IMG/VR virus record: IMGVR_UViG_3300010429_001883
Coordinates: 1-64,000 of that record
Source of the DNA: a virus
Lineage: Duplodnaviria; Caudoviricetes
Reading direction: 5' to 3' (one strand)
Length of the DNA stretch: 64,000 nt
In this document: positions 13,582-28,778 of the stretch, in pieces
Layout of the letters: each line of letters begins with the position of its first letter
How positions within the stretch are numbered: the stretch's first letter is position 1
Notes under the pieces: generated by a model
The model's input: the letters and a program-made list of their open reading frames with translations, nothing else
Told to the model about the DNA's origin: nothing
Database searches by the model: none
Program-made: the position numbers and the translations under genes

Positions 13582-14301
13582 CTACTGGCCGTTCTCGACA
13601 TCGTCCGGATTGGGCGAAGTCGGAATGATGCTGGACAGGATCTCCTTCACGGTGCTGGCCGCCACACGAACGCCAGCGGCGGCACCCTTCAGAGAACCGG
13701 GCTTGGCAATCTCGTGGATGTCATGCTGATTAGTTTTCGCATTGACAGTCCACATGATGTCCACCTTGGAGCGATTGCTGGCAATAGCCGCCAGCACGAG
13801 GGCCAGGGTGCTGAGGTCGTCGTTCTGGATGTCCTCAACTGGGTCCCAGTCCATCAGGTTGGGGGCGATGCATTCATCGCTCTCGAACTGGATCTGCAGG
13901 TTCGAGTTCTTGAAGTCCTCCTTCACCTCCCGCGTGAGCGTGAAGGGCTTGCCGGCCATAGCCGCGTAGTCCACGGCACCAAGCAGGCGCATCAAATTGA
14001 TGCCACTCTGCGTGTTACCACGGACAGCTTCCGGAGTGTCCGACGGGTTGAACGTAATGTTCATGGTCTTCCGATTGGACATGGTCGGGGACTGGTTGCG
14101 GTCAACGCTCCGAATGAGTTGCTGTTCTTCGGTGCCGTCGGCCTTCTTGCGGGGATCAAGGTCGAGGCGAACGCGGGCAACGAAATTGTTGCTGTTCGCC
14201 GCAGCGGAACGAGCCAGGCTAGCCGCCGTGACAGTTGCGCTCGACACTTCGCCGGACGACGGAGTGTACGAAGCGGTGGGGTTTTGAAGATTGATCTTCA
14301 T
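13582..14301 (-). CDS. Hypothetical protein coupled to RNAP-1 (possible ssDNA-binding protein or transcription cofactor)
   Basis: ATGA overlap with the RNAP-1 stop; AGGAGG RBS; GC-richer codon usage; acidic C-terminal tail. Confidence 0.75.
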   Translation of the reverse strand: MKINLQNPTASYTPSSGEVSSATVTAASLARSAAANSNNFVARVRLDLDPRKKADGTEEQQLIRSVDRNQSPTMSNRKTMNITFNPSDTPEAVRGNTQSGINLMRLLGAVDYAAMAGKPFTLTREVKEDFKNSNLQIQFESDECIAPNLMDWDPVEDIQNDDLSTLALVLAAIASNRSKVDIMWTVNAKTNQHDIHEIAKPGSLKGAAAGVRVAASTVKEILSSIIPTSPNPDDVENGQ

Positions 14302-17300
14302 GAGTCATGCCTCCTGAACAAGCTAAAATATTTTTCAATACCTTGACGAGTCTCCTCATCATATTCAGGGTACTGGTCATTGTATACCCTGAATACCCTC
14401 TGAAGAAGCTCTGTCGGAGCTACTTTCCAAATCAATGAAGTACGAAGATTATATCCTAGTACATCCCTGAAATCAGTAGCCCTTATAGCACCAAGAAGAG
14501 AGAAAAACCACATAGAGATCATATCATAGTGACCAGGTTTTGCAACTCTTCTCATGATGTCAGCCAGATTATGAACAACACCTGGCTTCTGTATTCTTCC
14601 TTCCTTATCCACAACACCATGCAAGAATCGGGTTACTTCCGACCATTCCATGGTTGACGTGAATCCTTCTTCGCTGTTGACATCAAACTGCTCTGCATAT
14701 TGCTGAGTCAGTTTGGTATACATTTCCATAACGACGAGGGCGTATTCTTTCAACTCGTTAACAGCCATGATATCCAGAGAAGCGTTAACTAGAGGATCAA
14801 GTTCTTTCAGGATGGCTGTGAAGATTGGCGTGTACATGTGCATGAAGCTCTGGTTAAAGATGATTGAATACTTATTCTCGTACGGAGTACCTGCATACCC
14901 ACGAGGGATAAGGCTGGTAAATTCCAGAGAGATGAAATCGTCAACGATTTCATAATACGGATGATTGAAGATTTGGTATGCAAGCTTCTTATTGTTTGGC
15001 AACCAAACGTTCAGCACCCAAATCCAATAATCACGTAGGAACATCCACCAATCCAAATATTGGTCTTTGGAATAGGGGATTTTGTGTCCAGTGTCGCGGA
15101 CAAACTCCAGGAGCATTCCGCTTAACGTGGGCGGCGAAGAGAGTTTTTCTGGGTTGAAGAACAGAATCGCGTTAACAGGATTTTCATGATCGTGAACGAA
15201 CAAAAAATCCTTTTCAAGTTGATCTGAATAATCAACTTGAATGATATTGTGTTTAGGCTTGAAGTCTTCGATAACGCGCTGAATATGTTGCCTGAGTTGT
15301 GTTTTCTCTTCGTCGGAAAGATTCTGTTTCTTGCAAATTCTTTCGAAGACAATCCTAGTCACGCGATTGTCTTCGATACCGATAGCGGCTTTGGAAGTAA
15401 GCGTTTTGTAAGCAGCATCAACGACTTCTGAGACGCTCATAATATCGCATTCGTTGATATTTTCGCCCTTAAGCCCTTCCAGCCTGCTACCCTGCTTACA
15501 GAATCCGGTAGCCCATGTTGGTAGAATGCCTGCCAGATCACCATCGAAATCACCTGAAGCAGTAGCCCAATCCTCCGGATGCAGTTCGACTACGTTTCCG
15601 AAAGACCAATCCACTACTTTCGCAGTGAATGAATCTCTCGTTCTCACCTTGCGAGAATCGCTTTCGGTAATGCAATCGAGATTCGGGTTTCTAACGATGG
15701 TGATATATCCGTTGGCATCAACGATGGGTTTGAAGTCTAGCGGGATTCGGCACTCGCCCTGCTTCAGTCCGATTCCAGGTGCGGCTAGCCGATACCCATA
15801 CTTGACATGGGTCATGCCTTTTTCGTTGGCTACAACCTTGTTAGCCAACTTGTAGGTACATTTGGCTTTGAGAGCAACCTTAGCCAGAAGGTTGGCAACT
15901 CTTCCAATGACCTGCGGGTGGAACGGAGCCATGCCCATTTTTATCAGCACCATAGCTGATTGGAAACTGGACAGGCTGCTCTGGGACATGTTATCGTATT
16001 CAAGGATCTTCTCAACTACACTATACTTTTGGGAAACAACCTTTCCTTCACACATGAAAGAGTCTTCGATAGCGTTTCCCTTAGTATAGATCAGATCAAT
16101 GACTCGCTGAATTTTAGCGAGTTCATTACGAATCAAACCCTTGATACGATCTTTGTCGGGTAGTCCTCTAGCAACCAATTGACGGCTAACATTGCTATAA
16201 GGCTTCTTAGCAGCGGCATCGTCACTAAAGATTCCGATATCATCGGAACTAATCTCACATGCAGGATATGAGATAGTTGGTGTGGCACAGCCCGGACATT
16301 TTGTAACGTTACGGCTCAATGGCAACCAACGCCATGAACATCCGGGGTTTTCACACATGGACAAGCGATGTTCTCGAGCTTCAAGATCAAGACGTGCACG
16401 ACGTTCTTGCTTGATGGCCTTCGGGTTAAAAACAACCCGAATAGTGTCCACATCAAGCGGAAGACCGAATTCAGATTCCCATACGTGGTCTGGAAGGAAT
16501 CGAATGCATCCTTTTACGGAGCTGGATGCACACTGCAGCATTGTCACATCGCTAATGTAGCCACTTGCAGCCATCAGTTGCATTCCATAGGTTGCCGGCA
16601 TGAAGGCAATGATGCCATCATACTGAGTCAACCGATCAAGGATAATTCCACGCAACAAGGGCTTTTTGGATTTCTCCAAAATCTCTCCGAGCCTCACACG
16701 AGATTTGGCTGACGGAGTCGCAAAATAGCTACTTTCGAAATGCAGCTGGTTACAGGGCATCACGAATCGCTTGACGGTAGTGACAAGCGACATTCTGGAC
16801 ATTCTTTCCTCATTTCCCATTAGTGGGACGTAAAACAGTTCCATCCCACTACGGTCAGTAAACGATGTAAGGTGAGGCTGATTTCCATACTTCGCATAGA
16901 AATCCTGGAATCGTTCAAAGGTTTCTGGAGTCGGCGGATACTCAGATGGAGCAACTGGAAGATTCTTAAACTGCTTGGGGATTCTATCCTCCGGCCAAGG
17001 GCCAAAGCGCGCTTTCAGGCAATCTTCTCCGATAAGAATTCCAAGCTTATCTTCGCCGTTGCCACGAAAAGCAGCTTCATCACAATACAGGAATGTGGCA
17101 CTAGTCACCATTCCTGTACTAGTGCCGAGAGGATAGAGGGCATCGATGGTTGGAACACCGGTTCGTCCAGTCATTACTTGTTCAAACAACTGTGGTGATC
17201 CAAGCATCGTATTTCTCTGCCCCGTGTTAGGATCAATAACCTTCACGAGATAGATGCTTCCGCCCATGCGTTTAGCTGTGGTATAAGCCAAACAAGAACG

Positions 17301-17738
17301 CATTCGGAATTTGTGGGTTTGAAGATAGTTTTCGATCTCAATGATAGGTCGATCAAATGATCGGCTTTTCTTGAGGATCTTAGCAAGTTCTTCATCATCA
17401 GGCATACGAAAGTTGGGAACTTTCGTTTTCCCGATGATCTGCTGGGCAATGAGATAGTATCCAGGGACTTGAATAAGGTTATAGCGCCAGATATACTCCA
17501 ACTCATTTTCAAGATCGCGTTCACTCATGAACGATGCTGGAGTTTCCGGACTGCAAAACCTTTTCACAAGTTCCAGGACTTTGTCCTTCTCATACTCGTC
17601 TGAACTGAAGGTTTGCCCATTGATTGAGAATGAAAGAATTCTACAGATATTTCCTGCGAATCTTTCAATCTCGATACTGTATGGGCCCACCTCAATCAGG
17701 CTGAGAAGGGCCCGCTGGGCCATCTCCTTTCGATTCAT
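14298..17738 (-). CDS. RNAP-1: single-chain double-psi-beta-barrel RNA polymerase (YonO/cellular-RdRP-like)
   Basis: VKG, IVRNPNL and ASGDFDGD (DFDGD at 15537-15551) in the expected order; Zn ribbon CENPGC...CPGC; 1146 aa. Confidence 0.82.
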   Translation of the reverse strand: MNRKEMAQRALLSLIEVGPYSIEIERFAGNICRILSFSINGQTFSSDEYEKDKVLELVKRFCSPETPASFMSERDLENELEYIWRYNLIQVPGYYLIAQQIIGKTKVPNFRMPDDEELAKILKKSRSFDRPIIEIENYLQTHKFRMRSCLAYTTAKRMGGSIYLVKVIDPNTGQRNTMLGSPQLFEQVMTGRTGVPTIDALYPLGTSTGMVTSATFLYCDEAAFRGNGEDKLGILIGEDCLKARFGPWPEDRIPKQFKNLPVAPSEYPPTPETFERFQDFYAKYGNQPHLTSFTDRSGMELFYVPLMGNEERMSRMSLVTTVKRFVMPCNQLHFESSYFATPSAKSRVRLGEILEKSKKPLLRGIILDRLTQYDGIIAFMPATYGMQLMAASGYISDVTMLQCASSSVKGCIRFLPDHVWESEFGLPLDVDTIRVVFNPKAIKQERRARLDLEAREHRLSMCENPGCSWRWLPLSRNVTKCPGCATPTISYPACEISSDDIGIFSDDAAAKKPYSNVSRQLVARGLPDKDRIKGLIRNELAKIQRVIDLIYTKGNAIEDSFMCEGKVVSQKYSVVEKILEYDNMSQSSLSSFQSAMVLIKMGMAPFHPQVIGRVANLLAKVALKAKCTYKLANKVVANEKGMTHVKYGYRLAAPGIGLKQGECRIPLDFKPIVDANGYITIVRNPNLDCITESDSRKVRTRDSFTAKVVDWSFGNVVELHPEDWATASGDFDGDLAGILPTWATGFCKQGSRLEGLKGENINECDIMSVSEVVDAAYKTLTSKAAIGIEDNRVTRIVFERICKKQNLSDEEKTQLRQHIQRVIEDFKPKHNIIQVDYSDQLEKDFLFVHDHENPVNAILFFNPEKLSSPPTLSGMLLEFVRDTGHKIPYSKDQYLDWWMFLRDYWIWVLNVWLPNNKKLAYQIFNHPYYEIVDDFISLEFTSLIPRGYAGTPYENKYSIIFNQSFMHMYTPIFTAILKELDPLVNASLDIMAVNELKEYALVVMEMYTKLTQQYAEQFDVNSEEGFTSTMEWSEVTRFLHGVVDKEGRIQKPGVVHNLADIMRRVAKPGHYDMISMWFFSLLGAIRATDFRDVLGYNLRTSLIWKVAPTELLQRVFRVYNDQYPEYDEETRQGIEKYFSLFRRHDS

Positions 17739-18055
17739 TGTTCCTCCTCATTGTTCCTCCCGATTTTTTGGATTTCTTCGTCGAAGAGCATGGGCCTGTA
17801 ATCTCCTAGCGCTACTCGCGCAAAGATCAGACCGCTGTACTCTCTCAAGAAAAGAGAAATAACTTTCTCAAGTTCTATCTCAATTCCTCTAAATACTGTT
17901 TCTATCGGTTCCACTTCCAGCAGAATTTCATCTGCTAGTTTTCTGCTTTTGATAATGAAAGGAACTACTAGTTCCCTGCCGTCTAGATTAAGGTATACCT
18001 TAGCCGGCATGTCGTTGTTAAGCCGGCGCGGAAACACTTGAATTTTCTCTATCAT
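17735..18055 (-). CDS. Hypothetical protein
   Basis: ATGA-coupled to RNAP-1. Confidence 0.7.
   Translation of the reverse strand: MIEKIQVFPRRLNNDMPAKVYLNLDGRELVVPFIIKSRKLADEILLEVEPIETVFRGIEIELEKVISLFLREYSGLIFARVALGDYRPMLFDEEIQKIGRNNEEEQ
17846..17862 (-). promoter_or_regulatory. TTCTCTTTT motif copy upstream of RNAP-1 (no hairpin)
   Basis: ctcaagaaaagagaaa is identical over 16 bp to the copy at 21305-21320; it lies about 110 nt before the RNAP-1 ATG. Confidence 0.55.
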
Positions 18056-18581
18056 CGTTTTCCCTCAAGCATACCGCGTTATTGGGAACAGATTGAAGAA
18101 TCTGTCCCATAGATTCCAAAACGGCTTCTTCCTTCATATCAGATCGTTCTGCATCCTCTCCGAAGGAAGGATAGAACGAAATGATAATGCTATTATGAAA
18201 AACACTAGAAAACCTTTTAACAGACTCAATTGTTTTGGAAAAGGCATGTCTAAATTGGGCCACTCCAAGATATTCGGATTTAGATTCGTTGTAGGTTGGT
18301 TTCACAATATAAAACAGACAATCAACTGTTTTACCATAGACTTTTACGCTCCAACCCATATAGTTGGTTAGTGCTGGAGCTTTCTGTATCATTGGAAGAG
18401 AAGAAACGATAAGTTTACAAAACTCATCGTTCTTAGCCATCATAAGGCTAATCAAAGGTGGAACGTAGAGATTCGTCCTATAGGTATAGGACGATATCTC
18501 AATAGGTACAATCAGGATATCTTGATTACCAATTGTACCTATAAGTTCTGCTTCCGTCCGATCAATTAACGTGACTTTCAT
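18018..18581 (-). CDS. Hypothetical protein, possibly a degenerate macrodomain
   Basis: LFYIVKPTY...AFSKTIE...IISFYPSFG...EEAV echoes macro IIHAVGP.Y...AY...SIAFPAISTG...EAA, but the Gly-rich loops are missing. Confidence 0.5.
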   Translation of the reverse strand: MKVTLIDRTEAELIGTIGNQDILIVPIEISSYTYRTNLYVPPLISLMMAKNDEFCKLIVSSLPMIQKAPALTNYMGWSVKVYGKTVDCLFYIVKPTYNESKSEYLGVAQFRHAFSKTIESVKRFSSVFHNSIIISFYPSFGEDAERSDMKEEAVLESMGQILQSVPNNAVCLRENDDRENSSVSAPA

Positions 18582-18870
18582 GTTCTAATGCTCCTAGAGC
18601 TTTTTCAAGAATTGGTGGAAGATTTTGAATAAATTCATGTATCGTGCAGTGCCATACGTTTAGGTCTTGGCTTAACCTAGTTACTGTATCAATACAATGA
18701 ATTCTTGCCTCTTCTTCTGGAGTAAAAATGCAGAATTTATCATTCACTTGTAGAAGACAACAAGTGATGTCGCTGAGATGGTCCCTATGGATAAGCCCGA
18801 GTTTTAAATTTTTGGATAATTTCGAGGAAGAGGATAATAGCGTTTTACAGAAAAATTGCTTCTTGACCAT
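18562..18870 (-). CDS. Hypothetical protein
   Basis: AGGAG RBS; operon context. Confidence 0.65.
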   Translation of the reverse strand: MVKKQFFCKTLLSSSSKLSKNLKLGLIHRDHLSDITCCLLQVNDKFCIFTPEEEARIHCIDTVTRLSQDLNVWHCTIHEFIQNLPPILEKALGALEHESHVN

Positions 18871-18924
18871 CCAGCTTCTCCTTGTTAATAGGTAGAATGT
18901 GGATAATGCATAATCGTCAGGCCG

Positions 18925-19321
18925 GGCTATCCACTATACTCTACTTAGAGCACGAGCATAGTGGATAGCCACGAGCCCGGGAAGCAAGTTACTCGTATAG
19001 GGCCGCTCCCTACCCGTTACTCCCTATACGAGAATCCTATACCTGGAGTAGGCTTGTTAAAGGACATATTAGGGTCTCCTACGTAGGGACTTTCAGTCTA
19101 AAGGATAGATTCTCGCCATTCTCTAAGTTGTTCCCAATAAAATGGAACCTCAACGGGTTTAAACCCGTTGACTTTTCCATTTTCTTCTCCATTAAAGGGG
19201 TTATGTAATTTCTACCTTTTTAGTTTAAGTAACTTATCAAAAAAAGAGAAAAAACAAGACATTGATCGTTTCTGAGTTAACGAAGGGGAATAACGTTAAC
19301 TCATTAGAAATCAATGTCTTG
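18925..19321 (-). ncRNA. Highly structured non-coding tract
   Basis: Perfect stems ggctatccactat/atagtggatagcc, ctcgtataggg/ccctatacgag, tcaacgggtttaaacccgttga and caagacattgat/atcaatgtcttg. Confidence 0.5.
19237..19254 (-). promoter_or_regulatory. TTCTCTTTT motif copy after a long hairpin
   Basis: tcaaaaaaagagaaaaaa is identical over 18 bp to 23081-23098. Confidence 0.6.
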
Positions 19322-19401
19322 CATGGAGAAAATAAGAGGTACGAGAAACATGGAAGGACTGAGACTGAAGGGCGAGAACTAATTCACTTTAAATCAGTAT
19401 T

Positions 19402-19629
19402 TTAGCTCCTTACCATAGAGTGCTTTGAAATAATCGCGTTAAGTTCACGTATAACGTCGATTAGTTTCTTTTTATCGCACTCTATGCAACAGGTGTCCGG
19501 ATCGATATCGACTTGGGACATGTCGCGCAAAGCGAGAACCAATTTTGTGCGAGCAGAAATTGCTTTGGAGACTGAGGAAGATATTTGAGCAGGAGATGCC
19601 GAGGATGATTTGTGCTTATAGCAGATCAT
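19402..19629 (-). CDS. Hypothetical protein
   Basis: AAGGAGGT RBS. Confidence 0.7.
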   Translation of the reverse strand: MICYKHKSSSASPAQISSSVSKAISARTKLVLALRDMSQVDIDPDTCCIECDKKKLIDVIRELNAIISKHSMVRS

Positions 19630-19986
19630 ACGATCACCTCCTTATATGGGATCGTTTCTTACCCTATAAGGGGAAGATCACGCCAACGGCGGCCACAACA
19701 TTGACAGTGTTCCCACGGCCAATGCAGGCCTAAAAGGTTCTTAATAAAGGCCGCGGTGAGACCACAGCCAAGTACCCCATATAATCTCCCCTAATAACTA
19801 GTAATACAACCAATACACCTCTTCCTAGTAAAGGAAGAGATGAATCAGAATCCAAGAAAATTGCAGAAATTAGAAAAGGAATTAGAAGGATTATAGGACA
19901 TTAAAAAGAACCTAGAAATTAATTAAAAAGAATTACAGGAATTAAGAGGAAGAGAGAGTAGGTGTGGTTGCAGAAACTCTGACTGG

Positions 19987-20002
19987 GCAATTTTCGTGCC
20001 AA
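19987..20002 (-). promoter_or_regulatory. Sigma-54 (-24/-12) promoter consensus
   Basis: Minus strand TTGGCACGAAAATTGC is an exact TGGCACG-N4-TTGC match; intergenic. Confidence 0.65.
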
Positions 20003-20073
20003 TCGAAGTTTCACCTTTTTTACACTTTTTTCTCTAAATTCCTGTAATAAATTTTTTTTAAATTTGGGAATTT

Positions 20074-20322
20074 CTAAGAATCGAGTATATTAGCAGAGAA
20101 ATGGTAGTCAGAGGTAGGCTTTCTACCTGCTAATTTATCGATCATATGTTGGGAAATTGCCTTATTAAAGGACTTACAGTTAACGAGAATGGGGATAGCC
20201 TGGCCCGTGACCTGCCAAGATTCACCATCAAATTGACCTTGTGATGCTCCACAATGGCATACACGCCAGTCGGGAAGCATCTTTACCATGTCCTTACATA
20301 CTGGACAGTACATTAGCATCAT
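20074..20322 (-). CDS. Zn-ribbon phage hypothetical protein
   Basis: CPVC..CHCG; GAGGT RBS. Confidence 0.7.
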   Translation of the reverse strand: MMLMYCPVCKDMVKMLPDWRVCHCGASQGQFDGESWQVTGQAIPILVNCKSFNKAISQHMIDKLAGRKPTSDYHFSANILDS

Positions 20323-20327
20323 GGATA

Positions 20328-20561
20328 TTACCTCCTATCCTCCGGTTTTCTTTGAGTATTGCTACTCAACTTTTCCTTATTCCATGCTATTACCCTAATT
20401 CCTTGGGTAAGATAGACAATGGAAGCAAGAATGGAAGCTGACATCCCTAATACCGTGTATATAGGGTCTTCTTGTGTTAGGTAGATAAGGGTTCCTACCC
20501 CGGAACTGAAGAGAGATAGCAGGAAAAGTACTACTGCTAACTGTAGCTTTTTCAATGCCAT
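20328..20561 (-). CDS. Two-TM membrane protein
   Basis: Two hydrophobic helices; AAGGAG RBS. Confidence 0.7.
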   Translation of the reverse strand: MALKKLQLAVVLFLLSLFSSGVGTLIYLTQEDPIYTVLGMSASILASIVYLTQGIRVIAWNKEKLSSNTQRKPEDRR

Positions 20562-20624
20562 AGGTGTTCTCCTTTTTATCTATAATTTAAATAACTTAAA
20601 CTATAGATATGTTTAGGGTTAGTT

Positions 20625-21306
20625 CTACTCTTCTTTTTTACCCTTTTTCCCATAATGGGAAGAGGTTATACCCAAAAAGAGGTAGTAGAGAGATAGATAT
20701 AGAGATAGTTATCCAGTAGTAGTTATTTAATGGACTACTATGTGGATATCGGTTTCGGGTCGCCTGCAAATTCCCATACCATCCTCCGGCCACGTATGGG
20801 TGTGGTTTAGCGGGCCCCCTGCGTAGAAAGGCGTTAATTCGCCTGCCTCTCCCTTAAAAAAGGAAGTCATTCGCAGGAGCTGTCGAGGTCGCCCGAAGGT
20901 CACTTACGACAGTGTTCATGCATTTGAACAGTCCTATTGTATTCATGTGTGGAGATGCCAACGAATAAAAGTCGTTAGCTTTTACCTGTTAATTCAGGTT
21001 AGTCTATGTGCTGCTAGGTTTACCCTGGCCTAGGGACTAGCTGCGCCGTAACTCGCCTGCCGGCGGGGCGCTCCACACAAGTTTATTTTCTGAAGTATCT
21101 TTTTATTAGTTTATAAATTCCGTAGAAGAGTAAGAAGATCCAGAATCCTTGGATTACTAGGATCTTTAGGCAAGTAAATCCTACTAGATCCCACATGGTA
21201 GCCTCCTTGGGATGGATACCGGGATTTTGATGTTACTCAAATAACGAGGTAATCCCGGAAACCTTTGTTATTTGGAAGAATCACAGGTGAGGTACGCTAG
21301 ATACCT
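20625..21306 (-). ncRNA. Large (~680 nt) structured ncRNA candidate
   Basis: No ORF of 60 aa or more in the track; nested stems; GCAGGCGA occurs three times; begins right after a motif copy. Confidence 0.55.
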
Positions 21307-21343
21307 CAAGAAAAGAGAAAGAAGGGGCTTGTTAGGCCCCTTC
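21307..21343 (-). terminator. Hairpin plus TTCTCTTTT motif (terminator/promoter cassette)
   Basis: GAAGGGGC/GCCCCTTC followed by TTTCTCTTTTCTTG. Confidence 0.7.
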
Positions 21344-21463
21344 AGTACTTGAGTTTCTGTTTCACTCCTTCAGACATCTTGAAACCCTGTACTTTTTCGA
21401 AGTGGGTTTCAAAATATCTTTCTTGTTTACGTTGTTCTTTGCGAGACAAGGGTCTCGCGCTGG

Positions 21464-21931
21464 TCAGTTTCCCGCGGGGGCCGGCATCGGAAGGGGGTCG
21501 TTCAGCTTGGCCACCTGTTTCCGCAGGCTGGGGATGAGCTTTTTGACTTCATCCAAGGCCTTGGTCAGCTTTTCAACGTGTTCCTTGCCGGCTTTCTTGG
21601 ACTCTTCGTCCTTTTCATCGGCAAGCTTTTCGTTGAGGCTCTTGATAGCCACTTCCAGTCTAAGAACTTCGGCGTTGGCTACAGCCAGGTAGTCAGCGGC
21701 ATTGTTGGGTGCCAGGCTGTCGATTTCCGTGGCGGACAGCTTCAGCAGCTTGCTGACCTTGATCTGGGCCGCGACGTTCTTCGAGCCTTCGCGGAAGTTC
21801 TTGATGGGGTGCTTGCAAAACGTGACGAGGCTGGTCATCGCACCGTGGATCGCGTCGTGAAACGCGTAATACAGGGCGATGCCGATAGCCGCTCCGAACA
21901 CACCGATCAGCACATTCTTCCAGTTGATCAT
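21464..21931 (-). CDS. Membrane-anchored coiled-coil protein
   Basis: N-terminal TM segment; GGAGGT RBS. Confidence 0.75.
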   Translation of the reverse strand: MINWKNVLIGVFGAAIGIALYYAFHDAIHGAMTSLVTFCKHPIKNFREGSKNVAAQIKVSKLLKLSATEIDSLAPNNAADYLAVANAEVLRLEVAIKSLNEKLADEKDEESKKAGKEHVEKLTKALDEVKKLIPSLRKQVAKLNDPLPMPAPAGN

Positions 21932-21932
21932 G

Positions 21933-22277
21933 TTAATACCTCCATGAGTATTTCATTCTTTTTCGGATTCTGATTGCCCAAAGAAAACAGTCGAAAACCG
22001 CGCCGATGCCGAGGGCAATAACGACAACGCCGAGGTTGGGTGCAGCAAACATGCCAGCTAGGACAGTTAGTGGAAGTCCCAAGTCCAGCATGATTGTTGT
22101 GATAGGGTTGGAATGACAAAATCGTCTGAACCATCTTGGTAGATGGAAGTACAGAGTTACGATGTTTATCGTTCCAAAGAGGATTGCGAGGGTAATGAGC
22201 ATGGTTACACCTCGTTGAGAGATTTCAGAAACACATATAGTCTTGGTAGAACTTTTGGTAGGATTGGTTTGATCCAA
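21933..22277 (-). CDS. Membrane protein (likely start MLITL near 22202)
   Basis: Three hydrophobic segments; GAGGTG before the internal ATG. Confidence 0.65.
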   Translation of the reverse strand: MDQTNPTKSSTKTICVSEISQRGVTMLITLAILFGTINIVTLYFHLPRWFRRFCHSNPITTIMLDLGLPLTVLAGMFAAPNLGVVVIALGIGAVFDCFLWAIRIRKRMKYSWRY

Positions 22278-22591
22278 TTGGTACCAAAGGGTAGTTGCAT
22301 CTTTGATATTCCTTGAGCATCAAGGATAGGCAGAAGTTCTGGGTTTTGCTTAATAGCATTTATGAGTATTTGTCCAGATCCTGGGCCTTTTTGTTGGAAG
22401 ATTGTTGCTTGCTGGTGTATTCGTTTGTACTCATCTTGGAGTTCTCGTGGTGTCTTTTTGGCTACAGCCCTGGCGTTGATGTAACGTACTGGCTGAGTTT
22501 TACTGTTCCACCATCTGTTGAGTTTTCTTGCTCCTACTATAAGCAAGACTGCTTGAATTGTGAAGTAAACGATAAATACGAATTCTAGCAT
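22205..22591 (-). CDS. Membrane-anchored hypothetical protein
   Basis: N-terminal TM segment; AAGGAG RBS. Confidence 0.7.
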   Translation of the reverse strand: MLEFVFIVYFTIQAVLLIVGARKLNRWWNSKTQPVRYINARAVAKKTPRELQDEYKRIHQQATIFQQKGPGSGQILINAIKQNPELLPILDAQGISKMQLPFGTNWIKPILPKVLPRLYVFLKSLNEV

Positions 22592-22601
22592 AGTTTACTC
22601 C

Positions 22602-23051
22602 TTATTTCAGTAGGATGAAAATCAGGGTGGTGACTGTTGCGCCGACGAGACTGCCAGCGGTAATGTATAGCAGAATTTTGGGCGTTGAGAACAACAACCC
22701 TTTGATGAAGATGCTCATTCTGTCATGGATTGGCTCGGGCGGGACGAACACAATGTCCGTTTCCAGCGTTTGCTGGATATGGGGTTCTATGTATCCGCCT
22801 AGCATTTCCATGTCTTCTGCATCGTCGATCATGGCTTGCTGCATTTCTTTTGCCGTGTCGTAGGCCATGGCTGCAGCCGCCGTTTGCCCATTTCGTGCGA
22901 TTCGGTCTGCCTCATTTAAGAGGCGGATAATTTCATTGTTGTCGTCATTGAGTCTTTGCTTGATGGCTTCTCTGTGCTCATGGTCTGGGTTGTTACCCAT
23001 AAGAGTACAGATGCCATCAATTCCTGATTCCAGAAAATCCATGAGTCCCAT
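22602..23051 (-). CDS. Hypothetical protein with C-terminal TM segment
   Basis: AAGGAGG RBS; motif copy 30 nt upstream. Confidence 0.75.
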   Translation of the reverse strand: MGLMDFLESGIDGICTLMGNNPDHEHREAIKQRLNDDNNEIIRLLNEADRIARNGQTAAAAMAYDTAKEMQQAMIDDAEDMEMLGGYIEPHIQQTLETDIVFVPPEPIHDRMSIFIKGLLFSTPKILLYITAGSLVGATVTTLIFILLK

Positions 23052-23080
23052 AGGCTATCCTCCTTAGTTGTAAAATCTAC

Positions 23081-23164
23081 TCAAAAAAAGAGAAAAAAGA
23101 CATGAAAAGTATCATAGCAGGCATGGTAAAAATTGCTGCCATCGATGAAGATGTACGTTTGCAT
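23081..23164 (-). pseudogene. 27-codon remnant resembling a NYN/PIN nuclease N-terminus
   Basis: MQTYIFIDGSNFYHACYDTFHVFFLFF*; it terminates inside the motif copy at 23081-23098. Confidence 0.5.
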
Positions 23165-23252
23165 GAATCCCCCTAAAATAGAACATGGGGTTACAAAGTA
23201 ACCCCATGGAGGTGATAAACTTAGACTCGCAAAGCGAATCTAAGGAGTTTAT

Positions 23253-23303
23253 TCAACCGATGACGTACGCTAGCATGTTGAAAATGTCCAGAATGATGTT
23301 CAT
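23253..23303 (-). CDS. 16-aa hydrophobic micropeptide MNIILDIFNMLAYVIG
   Basis: AGGAGGATAAC-ATGAAC initiation region, the same as at 26416. Confidence 0.4.
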   Translation of the reverse strand: MNIILDIFNMLAYVIG

Positions 23304-23454
23304 GTTATCCTCCTAAGTTTGGTTTTATATAACAGAGGGAGTGCCCTCTATAAGTAGAGCGTCAACAGATGGACACGGCGAGTCTGTTGCCGTACTCGGT
23401 TAAATTTACTATTAGAGACATGTCGTGTCGCGGTGTGGGCCGTGGGGCTAGTAC

Positions 23455-23688
23455 TCACTTATAGAGGTTCACCTCTGTTTTATTTTGGTTTTTGAGAGAG
23501 TACATGCTGTTATATTTCTTTTTATCATATCTTGCTTGCATGAGAGCAGAAACTCCAATGAATGCAGCAACTATAATGGGTCTTCCTACTTTGTATATTG
23601 TTATTGCGAGATCTGAAGCTTCTGCCACTTGGCCGAGGATTGGAACATGCTTACCTAGTTTTTTTAGATTTTTGAAGTATTCATTCAT
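23455..23688 (-). CDS. Small membrane protein (full-length paralog of 26294-26416)
   Basis: AGGAGG RBS; hydrophobic central segment. Confidence 0.7.
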   Translation of the reverse strand: MNEYFKNLKKLGKHVPILGQVAEASDLAITIYKVGRPIIVAAFIGVSALMQARYDKKKYNSMYSLKNQNKTEVNLYK

Positions 23689-23742
23689 ATTATCCTCCTA
23701 TCAGGCTAGTATTCACACCGGTTGGCGAATCTCTTCAAGAAT

Positions 23743-23958
23743 TCAATCTTGTCCTGGCATCTCTCTGTCTTGGCGAGTGCTTCCCTGGCCACGGGCTTCA
23801 GTGCCTCGACCAGGAGGTACTTCTTGTGGGCGTACGCCCACCCCGAACATGTCGGTGATGCGGATGAGGAACCCGGCGGTCAACCGGCCCACGCACTTGT
23901 AGCAGGTGACCGATCCCTCGTCAAACGACTTCCACATGCTACCCCTGAGGTCCTGCAT
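23743..23958 (-). CDS. Hypothetical protein
   Basis: GGAGG RBS upstream; the reading frame is otherwise uncertain. Confidence 0.4.
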   Translation of the reverse strand: MQDLRGSMWKSFDEGSVTCYKCVGRLTAGFLIRITDMFGVGVRPQEVPPGRGTEARGQGSTRQDREMPGQD

Positions 23959-24161
23959 GGCTCAGATCCTCCAAATTCAAAATGATCTGGTCTCGTCCTT
24001 TCAAACCGCCCCCTCCGGGCCATCTCATCGGAACATACCCGGAACGTAGGGGCGACGGTAATGCCCTTAACGGCAGCGGTAAATTGTCAACGAAACGACA
24101 AGCCAAATACGAATCGGGCGTCATCCCCGGATGTACGCCCGGAAATGACGCCCTGAATTCC

Positions 24162-26297
24162 TCAGCCGCCGTAAATCTTGGAGTAGATGTCCTGCGGGAT
24201 CTGCCGCTTGTATTTCCGCATGATCCGGTAAGCCGCCTTGGCTTGCTTCGGCGTGAAATTGAACTCCTGATCGGCCAGGGAATGGCCGAAGTCGGCGTCC
24301 ATCTTGTTGAACCCGGACCCGTCCAGAGCGTTGGCGTAATCGCACCGGTTGGCCACCATCTTGACGGCCATCTGCAGCATGGCCGACTGCTCCTCGGTCA
24401 GACCCACCTCAGCGAATGCCTTGGCTCGGGCTTCCGTGGTATTTTCCTTGGCCTTGGGGGCCGGGGTGGCTACCTTAGTAGCTTCCTTGGCCTCAACCAC
24501 GTCCCCGGCCTCTTCTCCGGGGAACCCGCCGATGAACCCCTGGGCCTCCAACTCCTCCATGGTCTCGGTCTGCGGGTGCTCCTGCTTCAGCACCTCCACC
24601 CGCTCCGTCTGCCGGTTCCACTCCTCGGTCAGACCGTTGACCCCCGCGCCGAGGTCCATGGCCCGATCGATGTTCTCCTGCTTGCCCACTATGATGTTGG
24701 CCATCCGGGAGTCGATGGAACCTTCCAGAACCAAGTGCTGCACCAGCACACCCTCGTTCTGGCCCTTGCGGTGGCAGCGGTCCTCAGCCTGGGTCACGTT
24801 GCCGGGCACCCAGTCGATCTCAAGGAACACCACATGGGATGAAGCGGTCAAGGTGATGCCCACCCCGGAAGCCCCCATGGTCCCCACGAACAACTGCACC
24901 GACCCGTCCGTCTGGAACCGGTCCACCGAGTTCTGCCGCTTCTCCTTGCTCATGTCCCCGGTGGAGAGGACCGCCCGATTCTGAAACTCGGTGAAGATCT
25001 GGTCGGCGACGTCCTTGTGCCAGCAGAACAACACCACCTTCTTGGCCGGGTCATCATCCAACAGGTCATACAGGTGGCTGATCGCGTACGGCACCTTGGC
25101 CAGCCCGGTCTCGTGCCGGATCACGCTCATCTCCTCGAACAACACCTGCTCGGCCTCATGCAGGTCCCGCACGGCGTTCCGGTAGGCTTCCTCGTCATTG
25201 GCCACCCTGGCCTGTTCCATGGCGTCCTTCAGCAGGGCGATGGCCTCCTGCTTGGAATCCCACAGGTCGTTGCCCCGCTTGATCAAGTCGGCCGCACCGT
25301 TGGCCGGAAGTTCGATCACCTGCCGCCGCTTCGGCGGGAGGTCCTTCATCACGTCCCGCTTCAACCGCCGGATCATGATGGTGGAGCGGAGCTTGGTCTG
25401 AAGCTCCTCCAAATTGGACGCCCCGGTCATATCCCAACCGAACCGGGTCTGAATGGCGTTGCAGTACCGCTTGGCGTAGGCCATGAAGTTGTTCCACGTG
25501 TTGGGGTCCAGCGAGTTGATCAGAGTCCAGAGTTCCACCGGCCGGTTCACGATGGGGGTGCCGGTCATGTAGATCTTGCGCTTGGCCGGGATCGGCTTCA
25601 CGGTCCAAGTCCGGATCTTCCAGTCCCATTTGCCGAGGATCAGCTTGGTCCGCATGGCCTCGCGGTTCTTGGCGTAGTGGGCCTCGTCCACCACCAGCAG
25701 ATCCCACTCGGCCGAGTGGATGAACCCGATGTACTTGGCGAGGATGTCGTAGTTGATGATGAAGATGTCGGCCGTGAAGTCGTCCTGCTTCCCGCCGAGG
25801 ACCGACACCCGCAGCGGCCGCACCAGCCACTTCTCGCATTCGCGCTTCCAATTGATCTTGAGGAAGGCCGGGCAGATCACCAGCACCCGCTTGATGTCCG
25901 GGTTCAAATTGACCACCCCGATCGCCTGGATGGTCTTGCCGAGTCCCGGTTCATCCCCGATCAGAGCGTTGCCCCGGTTGTACGCTTCAATAATCCCAGC
26001 CTTCTGGAAAGGCATGTACTCCAAGTTGGGGTTCGAGGGGATCTTGACCTCGGCGTCCGTGGCGAAAGAGGAACTGAACCGGGCAACCAACCGGCCCCGC
26101 CACTCGTCCAGGATATCCTTGGTCTCGCCGTAGGCCAGATCGTACAGCTTGTTGGCCACCTCGGTGGAGGGGGCGTACCACGTCTTGTGGGTCCCATCCC
26201 ACCGGAAACCGGCCCCCTTGGGAACCTCTCGCTCCTCGTACGGGCAGACCGTCTCGAACCGCTTCCGCTCCTCATCCCAAATCAGCTTAGTTTTCAT
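24162..26297 (-). CDS. SNF2/SMARCAL1-like helicase (annealing-helicase type)
   Basis: YMPFQ; GDEPGLGKT (Walker A variant); DEAH; MTGTPIVNRP; GVGITLT; QAEDRCHRKGQ; N-terminal GFRWD..K.WY domain. Confidence 0.92.
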   Translation of the reverse strand: MKTKLIWDEERKRFETVCPYEEREVPKGAGFRWDGTHKTWYAPSTEVANKLYDLAYGETKDILDEWRGRLVARFSSSFATDAEVKIPSNPNLEYMPFQKAGIIEAYNRGNALIGDEPGLGKTIQAIGVVNLNPDIKRVLVICPAFLKINWKRECEKWLVRPLRVSVLGGKQDDFTADIFIINYDILAKYIGFIHSAEWDLLVVDEAHYAKNREAMRTKLILGKWDWKIRTWTVKPIPAKRKIYMTGTPIVNRPVELWTLINSLDPNTWNNFMAYAKRYCNAIQTRFGWDMTGASNLEELQTKLRSTIMIRRLKRDVMKDLPPKRRQVIELPANGAADLIKRGNDLWDSKQEAIALLKDAMEQARVANDEEAYRNAVRDLHEAEQVLFEEMSVIRHETGLAKVPYAISHLYDLLDDDPAKKVVLFCWHKDVADQIFTEFQNRAVLSTGDMSKEKRQNSVDRFQTDGSVQLFVGTMGASGVGITLTASSHVVFLEIDWVPGNVTQAEDRCHRKGQNEGVLVQHLVLEGSIDSRMANIIVGKQENIDRAMDLGAGVNGLTEEWNRQTERVEVLKQEHPQTETMEELEAQGFIGGFPGEEAGDVVEAKEATKVATPAPKAKENTTEARAKAFAEVGLTEEQSAMLQMAVKMVANRCDYANALDGSGFNKMDADFGHSLADQEFNFTPKQAKAAYRIMRKYKRQIPQDIYSKIYGG

Positions 26298-26416
26298 CGG
26301 ACACCTCCCACTCCAACTTTGTAGATGGTGATTGCTAGGTCAGTACAGGAAGCTACTTGGCCTAGGATCGGGACATGTTTGCCTAGTTTTTTTAGGTTTC
26401 GGAGATACTCGTTCAT
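26294..26416 (-). pseudogene. Truncated 40-aa paralog of 23455-23688
   Basis: MNEYLRNLKKLGKHVPILGQVASCTDLAITIYKVG-VGGVR*; the stop overlaps the helicase ATG. Confidence 0.7.
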
Positions 26417-26569
26417 GTTATCCTCCTAGGTATCCTATAAATTTTAGAAAATAGGGAGAGGGCAAGATGCCGGTTATTGGAGTTATGCGTCGGGGCGGTC
26501 ACATTCAATGTTCCGCGCCATGCCACGCACTATCCGCCGTACTCACCCTCTCCCAGTGGAGGATACCAT

Positions 26570-26606
26570 CAAGAAAAGAGAAAAAAAGAGGGCACGGGCC
26601 CCCTTT
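26570..26606 (-). terminator. Hairpin plus TTCTCTTTT motif
   Basis: GGGGC/GCCCC hairpin followed by TTTTTTTCTCTTTTCTTG. Confidence 0.7.
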
Positions 26607-26871
26607 AGTTGATATTGGTGTTATTGTGAAGTAGCACGTTCACCAAGTCGGAGTCGAAATCCGGCTTGGGGTCGACGTGTGGTGCGAGAGTGGTCAGAAC
26701 GCTTGTAAGTGCGGTATCAGCCTTGATTAGGTCTTGTAGCACTTTGACGCTTAGTGCATTGTTCATGCTCTTGTCGGTGTCCATGGCGACGATCAGCATC
26801 TTTACCATGAATTCAACTTTGCCGAGCGCGCCGCAGAGAGCCGTCATAAACACTTCGTGATTGCACGGCAT
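26605..26871 (-). CDS. Hypothetical protein (start re-assigned to MPCNHEV)
   Basis: GGAGGT RBS precedes the ATG at 26871; same frame as track ORF 26605..26994. Confidence 0.65.
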   Translation of the reverse strand: MPCNHEVFMTALCGALGKVEFMVKMLIVAMDTDKSMNNALSVKVLQDLIKADTALTSVLTTLAPHVDPKPDFDSDLVNVLLHNNTNIN

Positions 26872-26901
26872 TGGTATACCTCCAAAGAAAGATATTACTA
26901 C

Positions 26902-26936
26902 CAAGAAAAGAGAAAAAAGAAGGCGTAAGCCTTCTT
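26902..26936 (-). terminator. Hairpin plus TTCTCTTTT motif
   Basis: GAAGGC-TTAC-GCCTTC followed by TTTTTTCTCTTTTCTTG. Confidence 0.7.
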
Positions 26937-26941
26937 TTTGG

Positions 26942-27445
26942 TTACAGTTTGAACTCGGTTGTGGCCAGGTTGACGATGTGGATGCCGTAAGCACGGGCTA
27001 ATCGGAGTGCCTGCTCGGTGCCGCCATGGCCGGGACTCCAGCAGATGACCATGTCTACTGGTGTCTTGAGGTCAATGCCGAGAATCTGGTGCATGTTGCG
27101 GGCGTGCAATAGGGTCGCTGCCCGCGAGCACATGTGCCAGGCTGGGTGATGGTCTGCGGCTAACGCCAGCGCTGCTTGTGACGGCCGGTTGAGTGGCGAT
27201 GTAGATCCGTTGAATCCTGGCCAAGGCAAGAATATCTCTTTCTTACCATTGGCACGGTCACACCCACGTTCGAACGCCGAGTCTGCGCCGGCCGCGGCCC
27301 CGGAACGTAGTACCCAGCCCTTCTGGGCCATTTCGAAGCCAATGATCTCCATTTGTTGTAGAACGGTTGTTGGAGTTCTTCTGGAACCAATACCGGCATA
27401 GACGTGTGTACGGAATGGGATTTGCTTTTCATTCTGTTGGCACAT
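26942..27445 (-). CDS. SLOG-superfamily (DprA/YspA-like) phage protein
   Basis: YAGIGSR.TP, LRSGAA.GAD, HARN..QILG, GGT.QA. Confidence 0.85.
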   Translation of the reverse strand: MCQQNEKQIPFRTHVYAGIGSRRTPTTVLQQMEIIGFEMAQKGWVLRSGAAAGADSAFERGCDRANGKKEIFLPWPGFNGSTSPLNRPSQAALALAADHHPAWHMCSRAATLLHARNMHQILGIDLKTPVDMVICWSPGHGGTEQALRLARAYGIHIVNLATTEFKL

Positions 27446-27540
27446 AGCTTGTATCCTCCAAAGAAAAAGAGTAAGTTCCCCTAGGTACCGTTTACTACTC
27501 GGTTTAAGGCCCTACGCAAACCTAGGGGAAAGAAGCAACT

Positions 27541-27577
27541 CATGAAAAGAGAAAAAAAGAAGGCCGAAGCCCTCTTT
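27541..27577 (-). terminator. Hairpin plus TTCTCTTTT motif
   Basis: GGC-TTCG-GCC hairpin followed by TTTTTTTCTCTTTTCATG. Confidence 0.7.
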
Positions 27578-27886
27578 TCATAAAGGTATTACAAGTACGA
27601 GCTTTTGGTGCTTACGCACCTTCCAGCATCCGTGGGATGATGCCGGGAAGGCCACAATAAGCGAGTCCGGCCAGATTTCCGGGCCATCATCTGCGTGCTT
27701 AGATGACAGCCAATGGGTTTCGATCTTTGTAGGGTCGAACTGGACGACCCACGGCCCGCGGCCGCCGGTAGATCGTTCTTCCCAACCCTCTGGGCACGGT
27801 GGAGCGATTCGCCCGCGGCAGAAATTACACTCGCAGGCGTTACGGAACGCTCGCCAGTTGTCGCCCCATTCATCTGGGGTTCTCAT
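27578..27886 (-). CDS. Hypothetical protein
   Basis: GGAGGT RBS; ends at a terminator. Confidence 0.7.
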   Translation of the reverse strand: MRTPDEWGDNWRAFRNACECNFCRGRIAPPCPEGWEERSTGGRGPWVVQFDPTKIETHWLSSKHADDGPEIWPDSLIVAFPASSHGCWKVRKHQKLVLVIPL

Positions 27887-27909
27887 GATTTACCTCCAAT
27901 GTAAATGTT

Positions 27910-27967
27910 TGGCGTGTGGGGGGATTCGAACACCCCCTGCCCGATGCTACTCGGGTTACTACACACG
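27910..27967 (-). ncRNA. 58-nt D-arm-less tRNA-like RNA ending in CCA
   Basis: CGTGTG/CACACG-CCA acceptor; CCCGA-GTAGCA-TCGGG hairpin; GGGGG..TTCGAAT-CCCCC T arm. Confidence 0.6.
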
Positions 27968-28044
27968 GAGCCATAACCGGTTTATGGCCCAGCACTATGC
28001 GCACTTGTGCTGGTTTTCGCCGGGTCGCTCTCCGCTACACACGC

Positions 28045-28060
28045 CATGAAAAGAGAATAA
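28045..28060 (-). promoter_or_regulatory. TTATTCTCTTTTCATG motif copy
   Basis: Identical over 16 bp to 28739-28754. Confidence 0.65.
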
Positions 28061-28066
28061 GGGGTG

Positions 28067-28258
28067 TTAGTCCCCCACGACCACCATGCTGGTCGCCATC
28101 GCGATGGTGGTGGCCTCACCATCGCTCTCAAGGCGGCGGACGTACTCGGCGTACGCCCGACGGGCCGCCTTGCGCTCATCCAGGCGGGCGGCAAGCGCCT
28201 GGATGGCCTCCGCCTCGCGGCGGCGAGTGTCGTTTTTGGAGTCCATGGCAACCTCCAT
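28067..28258 (-). CDS. Small hypothetical protein (likely start MDSKN)
   Basis: GGAGGT RBS; flanked by motif copies. Confidence 0.65.
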   Translation of the reverse strand: MEVAMDSKNDTRRREAEAIQALAARLDERKAARRAYAEYVRRLESDGEATTIAMATSMVVVGD

Positions 28259-28271
28259 AATTAAACTTAGT

Positions 28272-28304
28272 CATAAAAAGAGAATAAGGGGCCGGAGCCC
28301 CTTA
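28272..28304 (-). terminator. Hairpin plus TTATTCTCTTTTTATG motif
   Basis: TAAGGGGC-TCCG-GCCCCTTA hairpin. Confidence 0.7.
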
Positions 28305-28308
28305 GTTG

Positions 28309-28644
28309 CTAGAACGGATTCCCGCTGTCGGTCGCGGGCGCGGGGGCGGGCGCGGTGGTCGTGGTCGCGGGCTTTTCATCCGGGGACGAAGTGTCCTCGG
28401 TCAAAGTCCCGCGTTTGAACACTTGGGATGTCCCGCCTGTCTTGGTGGCGACCGCCACGGCTTTGTCGGCGTCGAACATGACCCCGGAGAACCACACGCC
28501 TCCGACATTGAGGCTAGCGGTGACAACCTGGGTGCCGTCAGCCTTGACCACCTTCTTCAGGAGAAGGGGGACTCCGCTCGCCAGCGCCACCAGGATCTGG
28601 GCCTCCGCGCCGAACTTGTCAGCGACCAATTGCTTGATAGACAT
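28309..28644 (-). CDS. Small beta-rich protein with T/P/A linker and -DSGNPF tail (SSB-like architecture)
   Basis: GGAGGT RBS before MSIKQL at 28644. Confidence 0.7.
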   Translation of the reverse strand: MSIKQLVADKFGAEAQILVALASGVPLLLKKVVKADGTQVVTASLNVGGVWFSGVMFDADKAVAVATKTGGTSQVFKRGTLTEDTSSPDEKPATTTTAPAPAPATDSGNPF

Positions 28645-28738
28645 TATCGTACCTCCAGGGCAAAGATTTTCAATCAATAGCAGAGAATCAGACTCCGTGA
28701 TGGGCCGCCAACAACCCACCACGGAGCCCGAAACTCAT

Positions 28739-28778
28739 CATGAAAAGAGAATAACAGGCGTTGGGATCTCCAACACCT
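28739..28778 (-). promoter_or_regulatory. Imperfect hairpin plus TTATTCTCTTTTCATG motif
   Basis: First full motif copy downstream of RNAP-2 in the direction of transcription. Confidence 0.65.

Follow-up and report, generated by a model that had tools for sequence, protein, structure and literature searches.

The window analyzed here, which makes up the initial 64 kb of a virus record of 148 kb in IMG/VR, contains a non-coding block of ~465 nt (20618-21082) that holds a GC-rich core of ~350 nt. Our best explanation, offered tentatively, is that this block may be a structured intercistronic RNA segment within a minus-strand operon of small membrane-protein genes, acting either as a processing or stability element in cis or as the source of a stable RNA. 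We infer the strand of the block, its co-transcription with its neighbors and its cis-acting role from the features described below. The original prediction had proposed a large non-coding RNA of ~680 nt starting at a copy of a T-rich motif. The hairpin-rich non-coding block is real; an RNA of that length and start is not, as the first ~225 nt past the motif on the minus strand consist of a leader and a gene for a 37-aa peptide. The candidate RNA therefore covers 20618-21082 at most, and it is a modest, lineage-restricted candidate, not a discovery of the GOLLD or ROOL kind.

The position of the block in the genome is one reason for considering it as an RNA. The 148-kb record is 94% coding, based on a crude call of ORFs of at least 60 aa, and 20562-21463 is its longest stretch without an ORF of that size. 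In addition, the block was present in every fetched strain contig spanning the gap, from several studies, and we count this persistence of the longest ORF-poor gap in so densely coding a record in favor of an intercistronic RNA. The core is, as predicted, GC-rich (52% versus 40% for the genome).

Near-identical DNA was found in metagenomes of eight studies, covering anaerobic digesters, sludge, wastewater, biogas fermenters and sediment; two of these studies possibly represent the source sample. Protein-anchored and pattern searches for relatives of the core led only to strains of this phage, sampled from digesters, sludge and wastewater. There was no match to GenBank phages in blastn searches with the gap and the 10 kb around it, and the search of IMG/VR for related loci with the 155-aa, 77-aa and RNAP-1 proteins found no locus. 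Exact-pattern scans with conserved core stretches produced no true match in IMG/VR (the lone further match, L015, is unrelated and arose by chance), one contig from a sister strain in the metagenome set, and nothing in the GTDB genomes; the 148-kb record itself has no paralogue of the core. Protein homologue searches with RNAP-1, the 155-aa protein and the 92-aa plus-strand ORF discussed below returned only their own or near-identical clusters, and the lowest identity for the 155-aa protein was 88%. The phage lineage is very isolated, and the lack of a relative outside one phage species counts against our reading of the block as an intercistronic RNA. The putative single-chain RNA polymerase of 1146 aa encoded at 14298-17738 (-) likewise had no homologue beyond its own 90% cluster in a word-based search of 5.8 billion proteins.

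The gap had been described as ORF-free; in fact its right third is filled by ORF37, a 37-codon minus-strand ORF (21196-21083) that is kept as a protein in the strains L011 and L026. Translation would start at an ATG at 21196, with the sequence AAGGAGG 5 nt upstream (21208-21202), and the frame ends at 21083. The L011/L026 segment has ~25% nucleotide difference (~25 changes) and an in-frame 3-nt indel, and yet the frame is intact (38 aa) and the changes are mostly synonymous or conservative. The features expected of a small-protein gene, a kept frame, mild changes and a ribosome-binding site, were thus all found, and we assign ORF37 as a real gene for a predicted small membrane peptide based on the survival of its frame through this divergence. 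Its neighbors are of like kind, a 77-aa membrane-protein gene at 20561-20328 and an 82-aa membrane-protein gene. Both the conservation of ORF37 as a protein and the location of its stop codon, beside the stem of Domain 2 (Table 1), argue for our reading.

Upstream of ORF37 on the minus strand there is a T-rich motif, TTCTCTTTT[CT][TA]TG, that usually occurs directly after a hairpin. Exactly 10 copies are present in the 148-kb record, all oriented to the minus strand and all within an 11-kb region (17846-28739), outside of which the motif is absent. The copy in the gap is kept, with changes, in the divergent L026 allele. This motif is too specific for a plain terminator tail and may be a promoter or processing signal for one of the phage RNA polymerases. 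Every gene around the gap and all ten motif copies have the same orientation, in support of our reading. At the other end of the block, the segment preceding the 77-aa gene (20562-20617) varies among strains.

Several other features of this region were observed. The 155-aa gene at 21464-21931 (-) encodes a protein with an N-terminal hydrophobic segment followed by a coiled-coil-like part rich in lysine and glutamate, with no Pfam hit. Between this gene and the terminator hairpin there is a 35-codon frame with a TTG start (21342-21449, -) that may be an unannotated small gene. At 27910-27967 (-), ~80 nt downstream of a motif copy, there is a tRNA-like minihelix that was called neither by ARAGORN nor by the Rfam tRNA model; in addition to an acceptor-type stem with a CCA end, it contains a T-arm-like hairpin with GTTCGAATC and a further hairpin.

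Table 1. Features in and around the gap, from left to right in window coordinates; paired positions of stems are those of their two arms.
Feature	Position	Strand	Remarks
Upstream region and ribosome-binding site of the 77-aa membrane-protein gene	20562-20617	-	14-bp palindrome, inverted repeat I2
Left part of block	20618-20731		Long hairpin 20625-20690, (AGAT)n 20687-20708, second hairpin
(AGAT)n repeat	20687-20708		0, +1, +2 or +3 units among strains
Domain 1	20732-20934		Closing helix GGACU/AGUCC around P-a, P-b, P-c and P-d (alifold)
P-a	20757-20819
Stem cccatac/gtatggg	20773/20794		Present
Patch	~20803-20973		Three alleles: window type, L002 type, L033
103-nt insertion	20807/8		Inside helix P-a, in L006 (L006:3338-3793) and L032
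P-b, Y-shaped three-way junction	20814-20880	-	Interior in three barely alignable alleles
P-b, helix	20818-20877
Stem cctgcg/cgcagg	20818/20872		Present
P-c	20879-20913
Stem ctgtcg/cgacag	20880/20907		Present
P-d	20914-20929
Domain 2	20946-21079		9-bp closing helix around four hairpins; starts 3 nt past the ORF37 stop codon
Stem tgtgtggag/ctccacaca	20946/21071		Present
ORF37, 37-aa hydrophobic peptide gene	21083-21196	-	Strong ribosome-binding site; frame kept in L011/L026
Divergent ORF37 segment			In L011/L026
Leader	21197-21306	-	Two hairpins (21289-21306, 21214-21263) and AAGGAGG (21208-21202); inverted repeat I3, gaggta/tacctc; RNA-library contig 21206-21341
Stem ccgggatt/aatcccgg	21219/21251		Present
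Stem gaggta/tacctc	21289/21301		Present
T-rich motif copy (TTCTCTTTTCTTGA type)	21307-21322	-	Candidate phage promoter or processing signal; ten-copy motif
Intrinsic-terminator-type hairpin closing the upstream 155-aa gene unit	21321-21343	-	8-bp stem, 6 GC pairs, then T-rich tail

Eleven distinct core haplotypes were identified among all the strain sequences found, and these differ by a few single-base variants and by the four larger differences listed in Table 1. There is no frame in the block that is conserved across the alleles, owing to indels of +9, -12, -2 and -10 nt and to the (AGAT)n units, and each of the candidate ORFs runs into a stop in one allele or more. We count it in favor of our reading that no frame survives these differences, and also that predicted helices are kept (see below). 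A codon-usage score was discarded since it did not separate even known small genes from their other frames.

The (AGAT)n tract, located in the leader of the 77-aa gene, varies in length in the manner of a microsatellite. The 103-nt insertion has hairpins of its own, one of which has the P-d loop (AUGCAUU) on another stem, and no source copy of the L006 insertion was found elsewhere in the record. We count the tolerance of the block to this insertion and to changes in repeat number against its being an intercistronic RNA. Identity with L002 and L013 breaks at 20617/18 and there is another break at 21082/83, so that the non-coding block behaves as one mosaic module; since there are similar mosaic patches in the neighboring coding DNA, the conservation of the block is no signal by itself. 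The alignment of L002 to the window also stops at 23100 and restarts at 24605; in between, L002 lacks or has replaced the small genes and the terminal part of the SNF2 helicase gene, and other strains have different small genes at this spot.

All six stems named in the original prediction were located at their given positions (Table 1), as were the copies of the octamer TCGCCTGC at 20760, 20839 and 21053. This octamer occurs five times in the window versus 1.5 expected, and at least five copies were obtained in 3 of 100 shuffles. We rejected it as a functional repeat since two of its three copies are not retained in every strain, the second being missing in the L002-type allele and the third altered in L013.

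Consensus folding (alifold) gave the same architecture on both strands, in which the core would form the two domains in Table 1. The expectation that the region folds more stably than chance was only weakly borne out by folding energy. While the z-scores of the 682-nt stretch (-6.2 plus, -4.1 minus) and of the 351-nt core (-3.4 plus, -3.9 minus) appear striking, they lie inside the background of this genome: 18 evenly spaced windows of 351 nt had means of -2.0 and -1.0 and standard deviations of 2.2 and 1.4 (plus and minus, respectively), and four of the 18 were at or below -4.5 on the plus strand. Similarly, a scan of 17.6-24 kb in windows of 160 nt found many windows, coding DNA included, with z-scores of -3 to -8. 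The folding energy of the whole core is no better than that of the genome, which counts against our reading.

P-b, in each of its three alleles, and Domain 2 pass their own shuffles. For Domain 2, the z-scores are -3.9 on the minus and -3.2 on the plus strand, with none of 200 shuffles as good in either case. Its variants are in loops or still pairable; its hairpin A is 10 nt shorter in the L002 type and is retained, with a C-A mismatch becoming U-A. P-b has the same Y topology in its three alleles on the minus strand (z-scores of -4.15, -4.14 and -4.34; 0 of 200 shuffles each), compared with -2.2, -2.2 and -4.0 on the plus strand. This Y shape in three alleles, along with the better definition of Domain 2 on the minus strand, is a further argument for an RNA of the operon strand. 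The left part of the block had z-scores of -2.9 (plus) and -1.2 (minus).

Differences between alleles indicate that several of the predicted helices are maintained. The pair 20881/20911 changes from U-A to C-G, and the pair 20824/20871 is U-U, C-G or U-A across the three alleles, the last two being compensatory. In L033, three substitutions at 20803-20806 rebuild P-a as a perfect 6-bp helix with the invariant 20763-20768. When the haplotype alignments were read on the plus-strand consensus fold, eight of the 10 single-base variants in the core were in loops and the other two were pairable. With the third allele included, there are the two clean compensatory pairs and the one rebuilt helix, too few independent events for covariation to support the pairs. 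Of the 108 consensus pairs, 87 are invariant and three are changed on both sides, and because most pairs never vary, covariation is without statistical power here. The covariation score among these strains of one phage was 0.045, versus 0.040 with the partners slid by +1, which we count against our reading. When the minimum-free-energy fold of the window was used as the prior, about half of the variant pair states were broken, mostly in the patch that cannot be aligned.

We lean toward the minus strand based on the operon context, the Y-shaped junction and the variants. Outside the patch, seven variant pairs are kept and three broken in the minus-strand fold, versus six and six in the plus-strand fold, and this ratio supports an RNA read with the operon. 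The minus strand also gives the better or better-defined folds for P-b and Domain 2, and on it a C(UUCG)G loop caps P-c. The signals for strand conflict, however, as discussed below, and we count this conflict against our reading.

Expression data were available as contigs from four metatranscriptomes, representing four studies. The 155-aa gene was covered by RNA-library contigs in all four. One contig of 205 nt, of the L002-type form, covers 20872-21065 in the core and is consistent with the core being part of an RNA, keeping in mind that contigs give neither strand nor ends and that DNA carry-over is possible; the leader contig (Table 1) gives no strand or ends either. The core contig came from one of the four runs, and ORF37 and the 77-aa gene had no contig, an absence that says nothing about their expression. 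Contigs that stop near 21353-21355 coincide with a strain polymorphism at 21348-49 and were for this reason not taken as marking an RNA end.

The proposed minus-strand unit would begin with the hairpin and T-rich motif (21343-21307), followed by the leader, ORF37 (21196-21083), the block (21082-20618) and the 77-aa and 82-aa genes. Within its transcript, the ~350-nt core may fold into two multi-helix domains and so would act in cis as a folded barrier or a processing site, separating the fate of the upstream peptide message from that of the downstream genes. Alternatively, the core could be cut out as a stable RNA. A bolder version, which we think unlikely, is that the block is a new two-domain phage RNA gene, either freed from the transcript of the early operon or transcribed independently, that acts in trans on the host or on the unusual RNA polymerases of the phage itself, with the fast-changing P-b arm meeting a variable partner.

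Other explanations of the block do not require an RNA of the operon strand. It could be a non-functional spacer, leftover or mosaic DNA between small early genes with hairpins at the usual level of this genome, an explanation that we view as somewhat unlikely. Such a spacer would account for core z-scores that fall inside the genome background, for the poor z-scores of P-a (only -0.07 and -1.4), for the occurrence of both G-U and A-C "pairs" on either strand, and for the tolerance of the 103-nt insertion, of (AGAT)n slippage and of replacement of the whole patch, in a genome whose neighboring coding DNA has similar mosaic patches. It is harder to reconcile with the retention of the block in all strains seen despite a record that is 94% coding, with three P-b alleles whose interiors cannot be aligned and which share one topology with z-scores near -4.2, and with the two double compensatory changes and the three concerted substitutions in L033. 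Decidedly unlikely, in our estimation, is an independent plus-strand non-coding RNA, antisense to the operon, that would run from ~20618 to a U-rich stretch past the Domain 2 stem near 21095. The plus strand has the lower energies, both for the single sequence (-126 versus -120 kcal/mol) and in alifold (-119 versus -110). There are also about ten invariant G-U pairs. The folds of P-c (z-score of -3.2), P-a and the left block are better on this strand, through G-U pairs that on the minus strand would become A-C. The variant at 21009, U-G to C-G, works on this strand only, and UUUAUUUUCU is found directly after the closing stem. However, no promoter-like site was found on the plus strand ahead of this RNA, and the U-tract, which L011 does not retain, is complementary to the final codons of ORF37. 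Moreover, the changes in L033 disrupt two neighboring pairs of P-c when read on the plus strand; in the minus-strand fold, one of these remains as G-U and the other involves a position that was unpaired from the outset. The equal numbers of kept and broken variants outside the patch, and the poor definition of P-b on this strand in two of its alleles, are also at odds with a plus-strand RNA.

A further possibility is an element that works as DNA, for example an origin of replication or a site of recombination or packaging, formed by inverted repeats beside an AT-rich repeat tract. This would suit the energies of the helices, which favor neither strand, the variable short repeat and AT-rich palindrome that adjoin the GC-rich core, and the identity breaks at both block edges. 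We regard this as improbable, given that the cumulative GC skew has no turn here, that there are no iterons besides the tetranucleotide microsatellite and no adjoining replication or packaging genes, and that G-U-type pairs, which are not favored by a DNA cruciform, are frequent. Highly improbable is a plus-strand protein gene, in the longest frame of the block (20740-21033), that has become a pseudogene in the window strain. This frame is open in L002-type strains (92 aa), is called as a gene in several assemblies, and is interrupted in the window type by a single TAG. By hand count from the haplotype table, seven of the nine single-base variants outside the patch are at third codon positions. 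This excess drops to eight of 15 once changes in the patch are counted, five of the six there being non-synonymous. All window-type contigs carry the TAG, which falls at codon 29. Between the -2 and -10 indels, the two alleles share 15 identical nt that would be read in different frames, and the 103-nt insertion in L006 shifts the frame. Neither a ribosome-binding site nor a Pfam hit was found for this ORF, its homologues are confined to its own cluster, and its orientation is opposite to that of every neighboring gene. We give practically no credence to a degenerate or unusual phage tmRNA, which was suggested by a partial cmscan match of 51 nt to RF00023 (clan CL00001) at 20953-21003 (+). This match, to model positions 89-140 in the tag and H5 region, had an E-value of 4e-4 in a small search and scored 16 bits versus a gathering score of 47. 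ARAGORN called no tmRNA in the window or in the whole record, and 20730-21082 has no acceptor stem with a T-arm and no T-loop sequence. The "tag" frame is three codons long before a stop and its hairpin loses 10 nt in the L002 type; the UAA of the "H5" loop is replaced by UCU or UUU in several strains; and the match is absent in L002 and L006. The tmRNA assignment was rejected on these grounds.

Should the core prove to be a functional RNA, a phage lineage that is almost without database relatives and that carries two single-chain RNA polymerase genes would have an uncatalogued structured element, and this would provide a handle on how the phage organizes an early, promoter-dense region. The present gains are corrections: a real 37-aa gene in the gap, a tmRNA-like signal that is spurious, and striking folding z-scores that are ordinary for this genome.

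In searches with models of known RNAs, no Rfam family reached threshold in the gap. A cmscan of the window at gathering thresholds returned five tRNAs only, all outside the gap. With Rfam 15 at E-values up to 10 on both strands, the gap had the weak tmRNA partial match and chance-level short matches only, including three microRNA or sRNA models (E-values of 4.6-9), and three other alleles had no match to Rfam covariance models at E-values up to 1. The models for GOLLD, ROOL, OLE, HEARO, raiA, group I and II introns, small ribozymes, riboswitches and phi29 pRNA had no match in the gap.

GOLLD and ROOL, to which the block had been compared, are larger than 350-465 nt. Like these RNAs (Rfam; PMC12286853), the block is large, multi-helix and phage-associated, as the original prediction had proposed; it differs in its length of 350-465 nt, its lack of a covariance-model match and of family breadth, and in showing no sign of being an independent gene, and so the comparison was not supported. 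The block fits the profile used in the GC-IGR approach, in which long GC-rich intergenic regions are used to find structured RNAs and homologues and covariation are then needed (PMC6429828), as no intergenic region of the record is longer than the gap, which exceeds the genome in GC content by ~12 points; the difference is that the relatives here are near-identical strains only, making the covariation step impossible. With tmRNA, the likeness is restricted to the 51-nt stretch that resembles the tag and H5 region of the model; the block is without a tRNA-like domain, a conserved tag frame or pseudoknots, and the matching stretch varies among strains. The RNase III sites between the T7 early genes are structured intercistronic processing sites of phage early mRNAs, and sites of this type are single hairpins of ~60 nt. 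The block differs from these in its size (~350 nt) and its two predicted multi-helix domains. Like the T7 sites, it would be an RNA structure placed among small genes within a single phage transcription unit, located directly past a stop codon and composed of irregular helices with internal loops.
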